A DNA stretch of 32,000 bases, from assembly GCA_025839675.1 (NCBI GenBank), contig CP104013.1, positions 5,850,001 through 5,882,000 on the forward strand, given 5' to 3'. The translations under genes and the position numbers were made by a program. How positions within the stretch are numbered: position 1 is the stretch's first letter; each line of letters starts with the position of its first letter. Positions 8,575 through 13,620 of the stretch are shown one piece after another. This DNA comes from Candidatus Lokiarchaeum ossiferum (GTDB lineage: Archaea > Asgardarchaeota > Lokiarchaeia > Sigyniarchaeales > Promethearchaeaceae). The notes under the pieces are model-generated. The model saw nothing but the letters and a program-made list of their open reading frames with translations, was not told the DNA's origin and made no database searches.

Positions 8575-8612
8575 TCTCTTTCTCATATCTCTTTCTCATA
8601 TCTCTTTCTCAT
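8575..8612. repeat. 13-bp tandem repeat, 3 copies (TCTCTTTCTCATA)
   Basis: Copies at 8575-8587 and 8588-8600 are exact; 8601-8612 has 12 of 13 nt. The array spans the stop codon of the 8596..9348 gene and lies about 25-60 nt upstream of the 8551 start codon. Confidence 0.9.
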
Positions 8613-9348
8613 CTTTATATCTTTCATACTCCATAATTTTATCTAAACCAATTAAAGTCCCAACTTTCTCCAAATTTTTAGCAAAATCTTTACAAAAAAA
8701 AGCAAAGTGTCCAGCTATAATGACAAATTCATGGATATCGATTTTTGATTTATAAAGGAGAGGATATTTATCCTTAATCCATGAAAAAAGCTTGAAGTAA
8801 TACTCTTCTAATAGTAATACACTTTCATCTACTAGTTTGTCAATTGTTTCAGAATCGATTTCTGGATTCAAGTCTTTTGCCATTTGTTTCATTGGATTAA
8901 AAATATCTTGCATAATTGAATCGGTTAGAATATTATCTAACTGCTCAGTGATAACTATTGCAGTTCGACCATAATATGCGATGTAATGTCTTCCTTCCAG
9001 AATTTTTACAATCTCTTTTAAATATCCATCTTCTACTAAAGATTTAATATGAAAATGAAAATTTGAAAGTGAATATTGTTGACTATTTTGTTTTTTCAAA
9101 TAAGCAGTATGAAGTTCTTTTGCTGTGAATGCATGTCTACGAGAAAGTTGAAATTTCTTTCCAAATTCATCTTCCAATCCATCACGAATATATTTAATTA
9201 TAAAGCTTTGAACTTCTGATTTCTGAACTTGAGAATATTTTGAAGATTCAATTGTTTTGAAATATTTTAGCTTATGCCAATAAGTGTACAATAATTTCCT
9301 CTTTTTTTCGCTTTCAATATCTTGGGAAGTCATAATAAAAAACACCAT
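8596..9348 (-). CDS. Hypothetical protein with probable ArsR-like winged-helix domain
   Basis: FTAKELHTAYLKKQNSQQYSLSNFHFHIKSLVEDGYLKEIVKILEGRHYIAYYGRTA looks like helix-turn-helix plus a beta wing; the C-terminal half is helical. The start may be M6 (nt 9333). Confidence 0.45.
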   Translation of the reverse strand: MVFFIMTSQDIESEKKRKLLYTYWHKLKYFKTIESSKYSQVQKSEVQSFIIKYIRDGLEDEFGKKFQLSRRHAFTAKELHTAYLKKQNSQQYSLSNFHFHIKSLVEDGYLKEIVKILEGRHYIAYYGRTAIVITEQLDNILTDSIMQDIFNPMKQMAKDLNPEIDSETIDKLVDESVLLLEEYYFKLFSWIKDKYPLLYKSKIDIHEFVIIAGHFAFFCKDFAKNLEKVGTLIGLDKIMEYERYKDEKEI

Positions 9349-9572: not shown

Positions 9573-10121
9573 TCAAAGTTCATACCGATCAATTTCTAAC
9601 AATGTTTGATTATGATCAAGAAATTCAATTTCCGTGATATCCTTTGAGATTCCGGTAATCCACCCTTCCATCCGGTACTCCCACAAACAAGTACAATATT
9701 CGTCAAGATCTTTCGGTTTTGGGATCATTGAGAAATTTAGTTGGATTTTAGATGGCATTCGCCTAATACTAAAATGAAAATCTGCTTCCTCGGGCAAATA
9801 TTTTTGAAAACAGATAAATTGAAAGTATAATATCTCACCCTCTAAAACAAAATTATAAGGTGCCCGAGTTTCTGCTGATAGATCTACACCAAGAGCAATT
9901 TGTGTTGTATTCATGAATGATTCTGACAAATCGAAATTGGGTAAAGATTCAATATGGGCTTGAAGGGGTATATCAAAATAGGGATAATAGTCTCCTAATT
10001 CTTTTTTTTTTTGAGAAGGAGGATAGAATGCGAGAAAATAAACAAGTATAGAGGTTGAACAAACTAGAGCTATTCCGATAATGCCCATCGTTTTTCTTTT
10101 TTGGGTACTCGATATCGACAT
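9573..10121 (-). CDS. Hypothetical membrane-anchored protein (single N-terminal TM helix, extracytoplasmic domain)
   Basis: N-terminal KRKTMGIIGIALVCSTSILVYFLAFY hydrophobic anchor. The remaining ~140 aa have no motif I recognise. Confidence 0.5.
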   Translation of the reverse strand: MSISSTQKRKTMGIIGIALVCSTSILVYFLAFYPPSQKKKELGDYYPYFDIPLQAHIESLPNFDLSESFMNTTQIALGVDLSAETRAPYNFVLEGEILYFQFICFQKYLPEEADFHFSIRRMPSKIQLNFSMIPKPKDLDEYCTCLWEYRMEGWITGISKDITEIEFLDHNQTLLEIDRYEL

Positions 10122-10230
10122 ACTAGAATCCTAATAATTTATAGTATTCAATCGTAATAAATCTACCATTTTGTAGGATCGAAGGATTATCAATAAGGAA
10201 TAAGAAAAAATAGAGTTCAGATATAATTTT

Positions 10231-10791
10231 TTAACTACAAATTGCAGTCCAAAATTGAGTGCGACCAACTTTTTGAGTACGAATAACTGCATTGGCTTCT
10301 TCTAATTGGCTCATTACTCGCCAAATTTCCGAATTACTGAGTTTGAAATATCTTCGCAGTTCTGGAGTGCTAATTTCCTGCCCGTTAAGTAAGTTTATGA
10401 CAATTCGTTTAATCTCCTCGTAATCTGTGCCTTCTACTTCCGTTTCAGTATCTTGTTCTTCTTCAGTATTATCCATTTGTTGAACCAGCTCGTTTGCAAT
10501 CTGTCCCAATCGTTCCAACTTAGTATTTAAGTTTTCTGGGCGCATGAACAAACAACACAGTTCTAATCCACGGGAAAAAGCCACGATATAAAAATTATTA
10601 TAGAGAATCGCTAAAGGTTGTAGTCCTTCATCGCCCCCCCTGAAGCTCAGATAGAAATTCATTAGAAAAGATTCCATATCAATATTAAATTCACAATCTT
10701 CAAATTGTCGGAACCATTTTATCCCAGGTCCTTCAATCATGTCAAAACCAATCATCGCTGCTGCAATTATTTCACTTTCATCAAATTTCAT
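10231..10791 (-). CDS. Roadblock/longin-like domain protein fused to a C-terminal winged helix-turn-helix
   Basis: An N-terminal ~105-aa alpha/beta domain (IIAAAMIGFDMIEG...LAILYNNFYIVAFSRGLELCCLFMRPEN...LERLGQIANELVQQM), an acidic linker (DNTEEEQDTETEVEGTDYEE), then a wHTH (STPELRRYFKLSNSEIWRVMSQLEEANAVIRTQKVGRTQFW). The ATG directly abuts the upstream GTPase stop (TAAATG). Confidence 0.5.
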   Translation of the reverse strand: MKFDESEIIAAAMIGFDMIEGPGIKWFRQFEDCEFNIDMESFLMNFYLSFRGGDEGLQPLAILYNNFYIVAFSRGLELCCLFMRPENLNTKLERLGQIANELVQQMDNTEEEQDTETEVEGTDYEEIKRIVINLLNGQEISTPELRRYFKLSNSEIWRVMSQLEEANAVIRTQKVGRTQFWTAICS

Positions 10792-11358
10792 TTAATTATC
10801 TCCTCGTTTTCGAGCATCTACATAATTCATGAGTGTATTTATTAATTCGACAATCCGTTGTCGATTATTTTTATCAATGGCCACCATCGGGAAGGTAGGA
10901 ATTTGTAACACATCTTCAACCCGTTCAGGGGACATATGTCCTTGTAAGTCTTGTTTATTCGCTAAGGCGACGAGTTCACAACTTTCGTCAACCAAAGTTT
11001 TGGAATGTTCCAATAATTCTTTCGTTGTGAGAACATTTTTTGGTGTGGAGTCGGTGACAACAAATATAATATCACTTCCGTGCACATATTTGCTCAAATG
11101 TTGTTTAAGATATGCTTTTTGGCCTCCAAAATCCCAGAGACGAACATTTAATCCATCCAAATTTGTAGCTCCTAAATTAAAACCCATGGTAGGATTGTAT
11201 TTTCCTGAGATCAATTGTCCCCGCATGAGTTTGGTTAAAGTGGTTTTTCCTACCGCAGGTGTTCCAATAATGGAAATTTTTGCAGCAGGAGCTTGTTGCG
11301 ATGGTTTAAATGTAGAATTTTTAATAAAGGATTTAAATGTTGATTGCATGGTCATCAC
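10792..11358 (-). CDS. Arf/Arl-like small GTPase
   Basis: G1 GTPAVGKTT, G2 PTMGFN (Arf PTIGFN), G3 WDFGGQ (Arf WDVGGQ), G4 NKQD. The interswitch and IIFVVTDS are colinear with Arf1. It has a 25-aa N-terminal extension containing TFKSFIKNSTF. Confidence 0.85.
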   Translation of the reverse strand: MMTMQSTFKSFIKNSTFKPSQQAPAAKISIIGTPAVGKTTLTKLMRGQLISGKYNPTMGFNLGATNLDGLNVRLWDFGGQKAYLKQHLSKYVHGSDIIFVVTDSTPKNVLTTKELLEHSKTLVDESCELVALANKQDLQGHMSPERVEDVLQIPTFPMVAIDKNNRQRIVELINTLMNYVDARKRGDN

Positions 11359-11564
11359 TATTTTGCTAAAAATCTATACCTTTCTTTAATCAGAAAAAGC
11401 TAATATAGCAAGATATCATCAAGATATGATCACCATCTTGTGTCTCTTATTTGGTAAATATTCCAAAATTATTTTTAAATAGTTTTTAATACTCAACTAA
11501 AAAAGGCTCAGTTTGATTGAGTACAGTAGGTAAGTATAGGGTTCGAAAAAAAAATTTGATTGGA

Positions 11565-11789
11565 ATGCGTTGTATATATCATGAATCTTGCTCCATGATT
11601 AAGAGCAAACGGTTGAAAGCTTTAATGGGGGAACATATTCCCGTCTATTGTGATGGTGATTTTCAGCAATGCGCGCGGGTCAAGTTAAAAGTGGCAGGGA
11701 AGATTGTTCCTATCATGTTATTACCTGATGGAAAAATGATTATAATATCAAAAAAAAAGACTTCAGTAGTGAATTATTCTACTGACTAG
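11565..11789 (+). CDS. Hypothetical small Cys-containing protein
   Basis: ORF with C-x5-C ... YC-x7-C spacing (MRCIYHESC...VYCDGDFQQCARV). Start placed at the first ATG; the ORF track starts it at TTG 11517. No family recognised. Confidence 0.3.
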   Translation: MRCIYHESCSMIKSKRLKALMGEHIPVYCDGDFQQCARVKLKVAGKIVPIMLLPDGKMIIISKKKTSVVNYSTD

Positions 11790-11800
11790 GACCTTGATGC

Positions 11801-12724
11801 CTATTTATTTTTCTTTGTTTTTGTAAAATATAGTATCGAAAATATACCCAATGACAAACTTGAAGCAATTCCGATTAGAGAATAGCCTGGAATACTGGAA
11901 AGATCAATTCCTAAATCCTCAACAAATTCTAGAGAATCAGCCCATGGATAATCATTTAATAAATCATCGTTATCCATGCCCCAGCTATAAGTTTCGCGAA
12001 TTTTACTCTCTTCATTGATTGATGTGTCGGGATTGAATTGAGTTACATTTATCTCGGTCGTGGCAGTTTGCTGTAAAAGCATATTGGAACTTTTTCCATA
12101 CACTAGATAATTAAGTATACGAATTGAAACATCCATCCAAGGTGTGTCTACTGCGGTTGGATAATCTCCAGTTAAGTTCACTTTTAGAAAATACTCCATT
12201 TTGTATGACATAATACGATCTTTTCTGGTGATATAGGCGATATTTTTATCTTCAAAAGCAATGGAATTGCCTTCATTTTGACTAAAGTCGAGTGCTTCGG
12301 TTAGGTAGGTCGAAGCATGGGGAGAATAAATCTGCATCCAGAATAGATCATAGAACATGGATTCCGGCATGCTCGAAGCTTTGGTATTGTTCACCGAGAA
12401 TAGCCATTGATAGTGGGTGGAAGTACTACTATTCATTGTTCCACTATGTTCAATATCTCCATCCCAGATGGTGTCGTCTTCAAGATACCACTCAAATTCC
12501 GTACCATTGACAGTATCGGTCTTTTTAATTATGTCCATATAGACAATTGAAGTGGAATTTTGGGGAACATTATCCCAATCATCCCCATAGTCAGAATAGG
12601 TGTTATCCCATTCGAAGGAGTCATTTTGGTTAAAATAGACTTGTACGGATGCCGAAACTTGTGCGAATTGGGCACTCAGCATAAGGACTAACCCCAATAA
12701 AAGATATGTAATTTTCCGATTCAT
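11801..12724 (-). CDS. Secreted/surface glycoprotein candidate with signal peptide and PGF-CTERM-like anchor
   Basis: N-terminal MNRKITYLLLGLVLMLSAQFAQVSAS signal. Seven N-x-S/T sequons (NDS, NST, NGT, NSS, NNT, NLT, NVT). C-terminus is PGY + 20 hydrophobic residues + KTKKNK. Confidence 0.55.
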   Translation of the reverse strand: MNRKITYLLLGLVLMLSAQFAQVSASVQVYFNQNDSFEWDNTYSDYGDDWDNVPQNSTSIVYMDIIKKTDTVNGTEFEWYLEDDTIWDGDIEHSGTMNSSTSTHYQWLFSVNNTKASSMPESMFYDLFWMQIYSPHASTYLTEALDFSQNEGNSIAFEDKNIAYITRKDRIMSYKMEYFLKVNLTGDYPTAVDTPWMDVSIRILNYLVYGKSSNMLLQQTATTEINVTQFNPDTSINEESKIRETYSWGMDNDDLLNDYPWADSLEFVEDLGIDLSSIPGYSLIGIASSLSLGIFSILYFTKTKKNK

Positions 12725-12834: not shown

Positions 12835-13620
12835 ATGGAACTTGAAATTCTTCGATTAGTGAAATCATTTAATGAAATCATTCGCAACTCTATAACTGGT
12901 CCAGATTGTTTAGATCCGCAGATTTGTTTAGGTGATTGTTGCTTTATTCAAATTCCTGTTCCCAAAGCTTTAGCTTCATATTATATCCAGCAAGGATGGG
13001 CAAAAAAAACTAATTTCAAACGAGGAACTGAATTTTCCTTCGTGATGGCTGCCGATCTATCTTCATTGCGCTGTGTTTTCTTTGATAAGTCGCTCAATGG
13101 TTGTTCTTTGCATATGAGTGGCTATAAAGCTCCACAATGTTGGGTATATCCAACAGGATTGGATATCGATACATTGAATCATTCATGTAAGAAGGCTTCA
13201 GGGTGGAACACCGAAAATACAGAAAATTTATCAAAAGCCAAAGAAATCCTGACCAACTATGTAAAAATTTGCAAAGAAGAAGCTCATTATGAGAACTCCG
13301 CAAAACAAATTCTTCATCGTTTACATTCTAAATATTTAAAGGAACTTCCCAATCTAACCCCCTATCAAGTAACAGGTCTCCAAGATTCTTGGGATCGCTT
13401 TAATATATTGATAGGTGATGGCTATTCAATGGGAATGAAACATTTTTGTGATAAAGTAAAATGTTCTGAATCATATTTTCAATGTGAAAAAATATGTATC
13501 CCCGCTTACAATCAATTCCTTGCTTTTTATGAACTTTATTTGTCCATTTACATTGAGAATTTTGGATTTAAGCAAGATTATCCTATAATCGAGCTAAAAA
13601 AGGTCGAAAATTTATCTTAA
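12835..13620 (+). CDS. Cys-rich protein, YkgJ/CxxCxxCC-like putative Fe-S or zinc-binding domain
   Basis: N-terminal C-x5-C-x3-CC (CLDPQICLGDCCF) and further conserved-looking Cys (LRCVFF, GCSLH, PQCWVYP) resemble PF03692-type proteins. The C-terminal half is unknown. Confidence 0.45.
   Translation: MELEILRLVKSFNEIIRNSITGPDCLDPQICLGDCCFIQIPVPKALASYYIQQGWAKKTNFKRGTEFSFVMAADLSSLRCVFFDKSLNGCSLHMSGYKAPQCWVYPTGLDIDTLNHSCKKASGWNTENTENLSKAKEILTNYVKICKEEAHYENSAKQILHRLHSKYLKELPNLTPYQVTGLQDSWDRFNILIGDGYSMGMKHFCDKVKCSESYFQCEKICIPAYNQFLAFYELYLSIYIENFGFKQDYPIIELKKVENLS

Follow-up and report, generated by a model that had tools for sequence, protein, structure and literature searches.

A small GTPase with Arf-type motifs and a two-domain partner are encoded back to back in the genome of Candidatus Lokiarchaeum ossiferum, in a stretch of 32,000 nucleotides (nt) of contig CP104013.1 (assembly GCA_025839675.1, positions 5,850,001 to 5,882,000 of the forward strand) that is called the window below and from whose first letter coordinates are counted. 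The partner consists of a predicted N-terminal longin-type domain, an acidic linker and a C-terminal winged helix-turn-helix (wHTH), and a conserved paired repeat lies upstream of the GTPase gene, next to a putative TATA box. As judged from gene order and distribution, the GTPase-longin pair is a translationally coupled module specific to Asgard archaea. In the reading favored here, to which a probability of about one half is assigned, a GTPase of the ArfL class has a dedicated longin partner whose winged helix would bind the promoter of its own operon, such that the state of the GTPase would be turned into a transcriptional output.

RESULTS

The GTPase and Its Partner Form a Conserved Gene Pair

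Both genes are read from the minus strand (Table 1), and their products correspond to NEF87_004961 (GTPase) and NEF87_004960 (partner) of Candidatus Lokiarchaeum ossiferum with 100% protein identity. A first-pass annotation, made from the DNA letters and a list of reading frames, had noted that the stop codon of the GTPase and the start codon of the next gene are contiguous. Indeed, TAA directly precedes ATG, but on the minus strand, the plus strand reading CATTTA at 10789-10794. A GGAG sequence is found at 10803-10800, 8 nt 5′ of the partner ATG. The co-translation proposed on the same occasion agrees with a tight coupling of the two genes that is kept across loci. When open reading frames (ORFs) had been called, 77 of the 86 loci showed a stop-to-start distance of -20 to +4 nt, and the distance was at most 49 nt in all of them; an overlap of the ATGA type (-4 nt) was counted in 27 loci and a distance of -11 nt in 26.

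The partner belongs to a narrow, well-conserved family that gave 357 matches in a collection of 5.8 billion proteins, all of them unnamed or described as "hypothetical." An exhaustive profile search of 1.84 billion representatives returned 32 clusters (50% identity), and two full-length profile matches whose gene context was checked, P0131 and P0143, are members of the family. Among the species-level genomes scanned, 134 carry the partner, including Promethearchaeum syntrophicum MK-D1. Their labels, as deposited for the metagenome-assembled genomes (MAGs), are Promethearchaeota, Hod-, Hermod- and Thorarchaeota, and one Odinarchaeota-labeled member was found in the protein search. The pair and its promoter element also occur at a locus deposited under the actinobacterial MAG label "Candidatus Nanopelagicaceae bacterium" (L037, DATKTW010000082.1), which is probably a mis-binned Asgard contig.

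Whether the fusion protein always neighbors an Arf-like GTPase had been left as a question for a survey. At each of the 86 loci tblastn located the orthologous GTPase directly upstream in the same orientation, its end lying 0-80 nt from the partner start, and in four spot checks (Hod-, Odin- and Thorarchaeota labels and a distant Promethearchaeota MAG) a GTPase matching Pfam Arf was found immediately 5′ of the partner. An Arf-like GTPase also lies immediately upstream of the divergent relatives P0131 and P0143. In P0143 (locus L087, 3480-4061) and in P0141 the same longin-type domain is followed by another C-terminal domain that replaces the wHTH. Since P0143 lacks the wHTH and is GTPase-adjacent all the same, the constant association is that of the GTPase with the longin-type domain. 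For the replacing domain, a tandem helix-hairpin-helix suggested by eye was dropped, as neither Pfam nor the PDB lent support to it. Two long matches were set aside as nonrelatives: P0150 (587 amino acids [aa]) is a repetitive translation, probably of tandem DNA repeats, and P0145 (1617 aa) was judged a spurious repeat translation from its pattern of nine matching stretches only.

The gene pair is conserved across Asgard lineages whose other neighbors differ, a point on which the first-pass proposal had been made to depend. Clustering of the flanking ORFs across loci revealed no universal neighbor besides the GTPase. Outside Lokiarchaeales, the pair usually sits in a block (47-69 loci) with a DUF2070 gene upstream, a gene for a 270-aa DUF3786-like protein convergent downstream, and genes for an RsmB-like methyltransferase and an EI24-like membrane protein; these common neighbors are absent from the window, and a third universal gene was rejected accordingly. 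In a comparison of pairwise distances, the GTPase tracked the N-terminal domain of the partner (partial r 0.61) more closely than the wHTH (0.41), which is weak evidence.

The N-Terminal Domain of the Partner Is Predicted to Be Longin-Type

The first-pass annotation had seen an MglB/roadblock- or longin-like domain at the N terminus of the partner, and an unrelated fold had been named beforehand as a possible refutation. AlphaFold2, applied to residues 1-112 alone with 63 diverse sequences, predicted with confidence a fold of the longin/roadblock superfamily (predicted local distance difference test [pLDDT] 89.4, predicted template modeling score 0.78). In the full-length model the domain is less confident than the wHTH and has the same topology. 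Its elements are β1 (8-17), β2 (21-29), α1 (39-51), β3 (61-63), β4 (68-74), β5 (77-83) and α2 (88-111). Roadblock domains, ordered α-β-β-α-β-β-β, have an N-terminal helix, for which longins have a C-terminal helix instead, and the order β-β-α-β-β-β-α therefore makes the predicted domain longin-type rather than MglB-type. The model has the arrangement by which a longin fold is recognized, this order being superposable on solved longins.

Searched with Foldseek against the PDB, the domain matched longins of AP-3, AP-2 and COPI (AP μ/σ, δ/ζ-COP), LAMTORs, Roadblock2 of MK-D1, DENND1A and SMCR8-C9orf72, with probabilities near 1 and template modeling (TM) scores of ∼0.5, but with E values of only 5e-3 to 7e-2. 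The N-terminal 112 residues gave no match to Pfam, NCBIfam or a longin family profile, and a profile search against the PDB returned nothing relevant. No Robl_LC7 match was found on the partner even at E ≤10; roadblock structures are nevertheless among the fold matches.

Two loops stand out by their conservation. The residues F16-D17-x3-G21-P22 at the β1-β2 hairpin are invariant in the core family and in its most divergent members, G21-P22, the first residues of β2, being invariant in 22 of 22 diverse N-terminal domains. The loop F50-R51-G52-G53 that follows α1 and leads to β3 is invariant across the core family. Reasoned from the strand order of the model, one end of the sheet should carry the β1-β2 loop, the loop after α1 and also the β4-β5 turn, and the two conserved loops are the best candidates for a contact or catalytic surface. 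A G-P pair at the start of β2 has been reported as specific to longins of the type found in GTPase-activating proteins (GAPs; C9orf72, SMCR8, FLCN and NPRL2) and to one Asgard longin class, and the same survey asks which GTPases pair with the Asgard longins that carry this GP motif (Novák Vanclová et al., PMC12290439). The spacing of F16-D17...G21-P22 is that of the essential W33-D34...G38-P39 of C9orf72, with the Asp four residues before the Gly. Human C9orf72 and NPRL2, checked to be 100% identical to the PDB chains, were then compared with the partner by hhalign. The alignment with C9orf72 covered 20 columns only, around the W33-D34/G38-P39 stretch, and was not significant (E 0.14); that with NPRL2 gave E 0.2 for the single sequence and, for the NPRL2 profile, a probability of 0.2% with a mis-registered alignment.

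The C-Terminal Domain Is Predicted to Be a Winged Helix of the DNA-Binding Type

An acidic linker and a typical DNA-binding-type wHTH had been proposed to follow the N-terminal domain, and both are supported. The linker has low pLDDT between the two folded domains, and its length and sequence differ among homologs. The wHTH is modeled at a pLDDT of 80-93, with H1 (124-135), H2 (142-149), H3 (153-165) and a β-hairpin wing (169-183). In the Foldseek search it resembled DNA-binding proteins of the ArsR/MarR type, among them HlyU (root-mean-square deviation [rmsd] 1.1 Å over 58 residues, 26% identity), SqrR (rmsd 1.5 Å) and ZitR. The Pfam matches of the window wHTH, to HTH_11, MarR, GntR, TrmB and ArsR, are all below threshold. 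The divergent members P0127, P0131 and P0133 exceed the cut-offs of Pfam families among HTH_DeoR, HTH_11, HTH_5 and HTH_24, and no DUF742 signal was seen in the Pfam scan of the partner wHTH. By these comparisons of sequence and modeled structure, the domain is ArsR/DeoR-like and resembles DNA-binding families only.

Twelve residues of the wHTH are invariant (T142, P143, R146, F149, N153, S154, W157, R171, K174, G176, R177 and W181). They include N153-S154 at the start of the recognition helix and the basic wing residues R171, K174 and R177. A close copy of the family wHTH (ETEMTTPELRAYFKLNSSKIWKLMRELEKAQKIRRSGKKGRAILWS) was also seen in P0139, a protein of 182 aa that begins with a membrane segment and has Cys-rich stretches resembling zinc fingers. 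This indicates that the module occurs without the longin domain as well.

A Conserved Paired Repeat Abuts the Putative TATA Box of the Operon

The 160 nt upstream of the GTPase gene were compared at 79 distinct loci. The flanks cannot be aligned, and a shared block lies at a constant distance from the start codon, between about -81 and -50. The element is present in 76 of the 79 distinct orthologous promoters. On the minus strand of the window (11431-11400) it reads GATCATATCTTG-ATGATATCTTG-CTATATTAG. Outside Lokiarchaeales the consensus is RTAATAY-N4-GATATTATC-N-AGA-TTCATAT(A/T), with two half-sites 11 bp apart. These half-sites fit a direct repeat of RTAWTAY as well as an inverted repeat, TAATA-N6-TATTA, and a score is obtained for the site on either strand. 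The TATA-like region of other lineages, CNAGA-TTCATAT(A/T), is taken, from general knowledge of archaeal promoters, as a putative B recognition element (BRE) and TATA box.

Scored with a 32-column matrix, the promoters had a median best score of 25.6 bits. Composition-matched control segments from the same loci scored -9.0 at the median and 5.7 at the 99th percentile, and 96% of the promoters exceeded that percentile, the matrix having been trained on the sequences that it scores. Because of this circularity, a 19-column operator matrix was retrained on 65 non-Lokiarchaeales loci only, and this test alone is free of it. With this matrix, positions 11413-11431, which lie 58-76 nt upstream of the GTPase ATG, rank first of 63,964 window positions. 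Of 13 held-out loci, which include MK-D1, 11 have the best site of the whole locus just upstream of the GTPase gene. Outside these promoters, in ∼0.7 Mb of flanking DNA, the motif is almost absent. Weaker, related repeats are present at the locus of a divergent relative with a wHTH. At L087, whose relative of the partner lacks the wHTH, the upstream DNA yielded no operator-like site, a contrast that comes from a single case and from DNA of different composition.

The partner wHTH is the sole domain of the DNA-binding type that travels with the operator-like element across lineages. This and the invariant residues of its recognition helix and wing lead to the proposal that the partner binds the repeats. 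Placed next to the BRE, the site could serve repression as well as activation. Of the alternatives offered by the first-pass annotation, a nucleic-acid-binding output of the GTPase switch has thus gained independent support from the conserved element, the binding itself being proposed on the grounds just given.

The GTPase Belongs to the ArfL Class

The GTPase matches Pfam Arf with 63 bits (cut-off 22.3), ahead of Roc, Ras and SRPRB, and among solved structures it comes closest to Arl3 and Arl2 (E ∼1e-15), with 8oul and 8oun of the Asgard ArfR proteins farther away (E ∼3e-9). Its motifs are the P-loop GTPAVGKTT, PTMGF of switch I (PTMGFN, residues 55-60), WDFGGQ of switch II with the catalytic Gln (74-79) and NKQD (133-136). 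In 82 orthologs G-x-P-A-x-G-K-T-T, P-T-x-G, W-D-x-x-G-Q and N-K-Q-D are invariant or nearly so, and with the catalytic Gln kept the protein looks like a working nucleotide switch. The Arf-type signature PT.GF...WD.GGQ is present, and the switch I Thr (T56) and the switch II Asp (D75) are 19 residues apart, which is also the spacing in Arf1. The residue equivalent to Gly12 of Ras is a proline (P33, window ∼11260-11262) that is invariant in all 82 orthologs, which is unusual.

The designation "Arf-like" of the first-pass annotation holds for the motifs and the profile score and does not hold for the phylogeny. The MK-D1 ortholog WP_147663483.1, which is encoded in the same operon (locus L014) and is 63% identical to the window GTPase, is labeled ArfL in a published table (Vargova et al., Table S3). 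ArfL is an Asgard-only group that was placed outside the Arf clade in two studies, in one of them near Rag and Rup2 (Zhu et al.). On the assignment of the MK-D1 ortholog in that table, the window GTPase is of the ArfL class and not of the Arf family in the strict sense.

The N-terminal extension, in which the sequence TFKSFIKNSTF is found as reported, had been likened to the amphipathic membrane helix of Arf, which docks in the GDP form and contacts the membrane in the GTP form. This likeness was rejected on conservation and hydrophobicity. Most orthologs have a 10-residue MLSSE[IL]xxLx in its place, and close relatives have unrelated polar extensions. The best hydrophobic moment of any 11 residues, 0.54, lies inside the range of shuffled sequences (mean 0.40, 95th percentile 0.56), and the mean hydrophobicity is 0.01, compared to 0.40 in the Arf1 helix.

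Other Features of the Locus

The coordinates of the features are collected in Table 1. If the T6 run after the partner stop acts as a terminator, the operon would be bicistronic. The two genes downstream (9573-10121 and 8596-9348) are not kept beside the pair in other lineages. In a scan for bacterial sigma-70 promoters and hairpin terminators the counts were at chance level, a scan that is uninformative for an archaeon. The plus-strand ORF of 186 aa at 10829-11389 runs antisense to the GTPase gene, as its shadow, and is unsupported as a gene.

A Cys-rich protein of ∼260 aa with a weak CxxCxxCC/PF03692 match is encoded divergently upstream of the operon both in the window (12835-13620, plus strand) and in MK-D1 (L014, 2593-3369, minus strand), the two copies being 49% identical. 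It bears no relation to the 270-aa DUF3786-like protein of the other lineages. In L. ossiferum two additional ORFs (11517-11789 and 11801-12724) separate its gene from the operon. The latter, on the minus strand, encodes a 307-aa protein with a signal-like N terminus and, at the C terminus, a match of 17.1 bits (cut-off 19.9) to the Loki-CTERM sorting domain; it is probably a surface protein.

Table 1. Features of the GTPase-longin locus in the window and ORFs of a neighboring gene block at another locus
Feature	Position	Strand	Remarks
GTPase gene	10792-11358	minus	188 aa from GTG at 11358; 187 aa from ATG at 11355 (start in the public annotation)
GTPase N-terminal extension	11284-11358	minus	residues 1-25; polar, S/T/K/Q-rich, variable
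Partner gene	10231-10791	minus	186-aa ORF
Gene junction	10789-10794	minus	GTPase TAA (10794-10792) abuts partner ATG (10791-10789); zero spacer
Longin-type domain (predicted)	10456-10791	minus	partner residues 1-112; AlphaFold2 and Foldseek
Acidic variable linker DNTEEEQDTETEVEGTD	10423-10473	minus	residues ∼107-123; pLDDT 49-60 in the full-length model
Winged helix-turn-helix	10231-10422	minus	residues 124-186 and stop; pLDDT 80-93
Operator-like paired repeat	11410-11431	minus	GATCATATCTTG and ATGATATCTTG; 11-nt spacing; 55-76 nt upstream of GTPase ATG
TATA-box-like CTATATTAG	11400-11408	minus	directly downstream of the repeats
T6 run	10204-10209	minus	∼22 nt past the partner stop; possible archaeal oligo-T terminator, read from the sequence
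Block ORFs of locus L001	2383-4302, 5622-6434, 6474-7583, 1254-2258		DUF2070/DUF3786-like/RsmB-like/EI24-like block

DISCUSSION

A Possible Route from GTPase State to Transcription

The strict one-to-one synteny of the two genes and their coupled translation suggest that the N-terminal domain of the partner binds the ArfL GTPase. Characterized longin and roadblock domains that stand beside small GTPases bind the switch face and serve as a platform, be it as GAPs (MglB, MfpD, FLCN, NPRL2, SMCR8-C9orf72), as guanine nucleotide exchange factors (GEFs; TRAPP, Mon1-Ccz1, DENN, Ragulator) or as effectors (SRX-SRβ) (literature including PMC3521125). By analogy, the longin-type domain would bind the switch face of the GTPase, probably as a dimer, and would either set its nucleotide state, as a GAP and/or GEF, or read that state as an effector. 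The partner, probably as a dimer, would in turn bind the paired repeats abutting the BRE and TATA box of its own operon through the wHTH. Binding of the GTPase in one nucleotide state would alter the occupancy of the operator, the output being at the minimum autoregulation. The order and coupling of the genes, their conservation, the folds as predicted, the conserved motifs and the promoter element are the observations; we infer the complex of the two proteins, the direction of its action as GAP, GEF or effector, the wHTH as the binder of the element and any targets beyond the operon.

Several observations weigh against this route. In divergent relatives, R51 of the loop after α1 gives way to K, Q, N, M or L, and residue 74 in the β4-β5 turn, where the arginine finger of NPRL2 and FLCN was placed, can be R, K, H, N or Q; with both sites variable, a classical arginine finger is not established. 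The HTH_11 match of the window wHTH (residues 129-171) reaches 20.5 bits, below the cut-off of 25. The winged helices of Npr2/Npr3 (PMC3521125) and of DUF742 act in protein complexes, and for this reason a role of the partner wHTH on DNA is not guaranteed. Some other factor might be the one that binds the promoter element. The circularity of the 32-column matrix and the singular nature of the L087 contrast, both described above, belong on the same side of the balance.

Known Systems and Rival Explanations

MglA and MglB, a bacterial and archaeal Ras-like GTPase and its roadblock GAP, are encoded in one operon. The present pair resembles them in that the genes of a small GTPase and of a protein of the roadblock/longin superfamily stand side by side in one operon and in that a platform on the switch face is expected. 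It differs in that the GTPase is an ArfL with WDFGGQ and not an MglA, and in that the partner has longin strand order without the N-terminal helix, no Robl_LC7 match and a fused wHTH, which MglB lacks. CodY, the GTP-responsive repressor of Firmicutes, links guanine nucleotide to transcription and likewise joins a C-terminal wHTH to an α/β sensor domain whose topology is related. One of its structures (5ey2_C) is the top full-length Foldseek match, a poor one (TM 0.26, rmsd 17.9 Å). The GAF domain of CodY binds GTP itself, whereas here a separate GTPase would hold the nucleotide. The Asgard ArfR/AArf proteins (HodArfR1 and GerdArfR1; PDB 8oul and 8oun) are also small GTPases with Arf-type motifs; the window GTPase differs from them in being an ArfL and in lacking the conserved hydrophobic amphipathic helix that mediates membrane binding of ArfR.

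In the main rival reading the partner would be purely a regulator of the GTPase, with the longin domain as GAP or GEF, the winged helix as a protein-binding or exchange-factor module, an output that is not transcriptional (for example membrane, cytoskeleton or polarity control, as for MglA/MglB) and a promoter element that belongs to some other regulator. This is possible, if on balance doubtful. A precedent is provided by the actinobacterial conservons (CvnA-D; MfpB-E), four-gene sets that include a sensor kinase and in which a roadblock-fold GAP (MfpD) and an HTH-type DUF742 GEF (MfpC) serve one shared GTPase. The analogy goes no further than that. Both kinds of domain are in one polypeptide here and in separate proteins there, GTPase class and phylum differ, no histidine-kinase gene is found among the neighbors of the pair, and neither DUF742 nor Robl_LC7 is matched. 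Npr2 and Npr3, too, combine a longin and wHTHs without known DNA binding (PMC3521125), and the GP motif of the partner is that of GAP-type longins (PMC12290439). The below-threshold Pfam scores of the window wHTH and the correlation of the GTPase distance matrix with the wHTH also, at partial r 0.41, fit a purely regulatory partner. Against it speak the resemblance of the wHTH to DNA-binding families only, with divergent members above the cut-offs and no DUF742 signal, the invariance of N153-S154 and of R171, K174 and R177, and the fact that no other DNA-binding-type domain travels with the conserved operator. An effector or adaptor for the GTP form that serves localization, comparable to the SRX longin of SRα on the Arf-like SRβ (a pairing cited in PMC3521125) or to the σ/ζ longins in Arf-recruited coats, is very improbable. 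The top Foldseek matches are indeed adaptor and COPI longin subunits from Arf1-bound complexes, and the GTPase has a weak Pfam SRPRB match (E 3.6e-5), but an evident membrane anchor and a conserved amphipathic helix are lacking in both proteins, the neighboring genes include none for coat or SRP components, and neither the wHTH nor the operator would be explained. That the genes adjoin each other incidentally and the proteins act independently has no observation in its favor and can be practically dismissed in view of 86 of 86 loci, overlapping frames and lineages with different other neighbors.

A closer kinship with the eukaryotic GAP longins was also considered, in which the partner would be a true homolog of NPRL2, FLCN, SMCR8 and C9orf72 and the pair a minimal archaeal GAP module of the Rag-GATOR1 type. 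As the first-pass annotation had suggested for an Nprl2/Nprl3-type protein, a longin followed by a winged helix is the published architecture of Npr2/Npr3 (PMC3521125). The shared GP pair that opens β2, preceded at four positions by an Asp and at five by an aromatic residue in the spacing of C9orf72, and a GTPase on the Arf/Rag side of the superfamily, set near Rag and Rup2 in one phylogeny, point in the same direction, and the full-length model could be aligned to yeast Npr2 (8adl_S) over 205 columns. That part of the suggestion stands, but a sequence-profile link to NPRL2 or C9orf72 was not found by hhalign, as described above. The Npr2 match has a TM score of 0.25 and a probability of 0.66, and in the search with the N-terminal domain SMCR8-C9orf72 appears at rank 50, behind adaptor and COPI longins and LAMTORs. 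The partner differs further from NPRL2/NPRL3 in that it has a single wHTH where they have three, lacks a middle region of the TINI/INT or DENN-like kind and is 186 aa long against at least 380. It has no conserved arginine at the turn equivalent to R78 of NPRL2, and the operon holds no second longin gene, whereas the known GAP longins act as heterodimers. True homology is thus considered improbable. As improbable, and more far-reaching, is a view in which the pair is both a direct switch from G protein to DNA and a living relative of the ancestor of the eukaryotic longin-GAP complexes. One protein of 186 aa would then be the GP-motif longin GAP of a GTPase on the Rag/Arf side and at the same time the transcription factor that reads its state, the winged helices behind the longins of Npr2/Npr3 would be relics of a DNA-binding past, and the whole would be a nutrient- or state-sensing circuit of "eukaryotic" parts with a prokaryotic output.

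Implications for Asgard GTPase Biology

A GTPase with a roadblock or longin partner is an already known kind of system. The unnamed family, its obligatory pairing with ArfL, the longin-wHTH fusion and the operator were not found in the searchable literature, and both families may be catalogued in the supplementary tables of Liu et al., who noted NPRL2-like longins and counted Roadblock/longin and GTPase families among the Asgard core genes. The GTPases of MK-D1 have been published as being generally without operonic longin or roadblock partners, and according to Zhu et al. the native regulators of Asgard Arf-like GTPases are still to be identified. These earlier statements suggest that the pair has not been exploited so far. 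The blindness of Pfam to the N-terminal half of the partner may explain why it was overlooked.

Small GTPases number in the dozens in Asgard genomes, as do longin and roadblock proteins, and regulators have still to be matched to GTPases. The locus described here offers a one-to-one, strictly syntenic GTPase-longin pair, with named residues and a defined DNA site, that both cultured Lokiarchaeia carry, L. ossiferum as well as MK-D1. If the wHTH of the partner binds the operator, a switch of the Ras superfamily would be directly coupled to transcription, which is unusual, and the case would show how parts regarded as "eukaryotic signature" proteins are wired in the prokaryotic relatives of eukaryotes. 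The pair would overturn nothing; it would make the matching of a regulator to its GTPase a matter for direct experiment, with two cultured organisms at hand.

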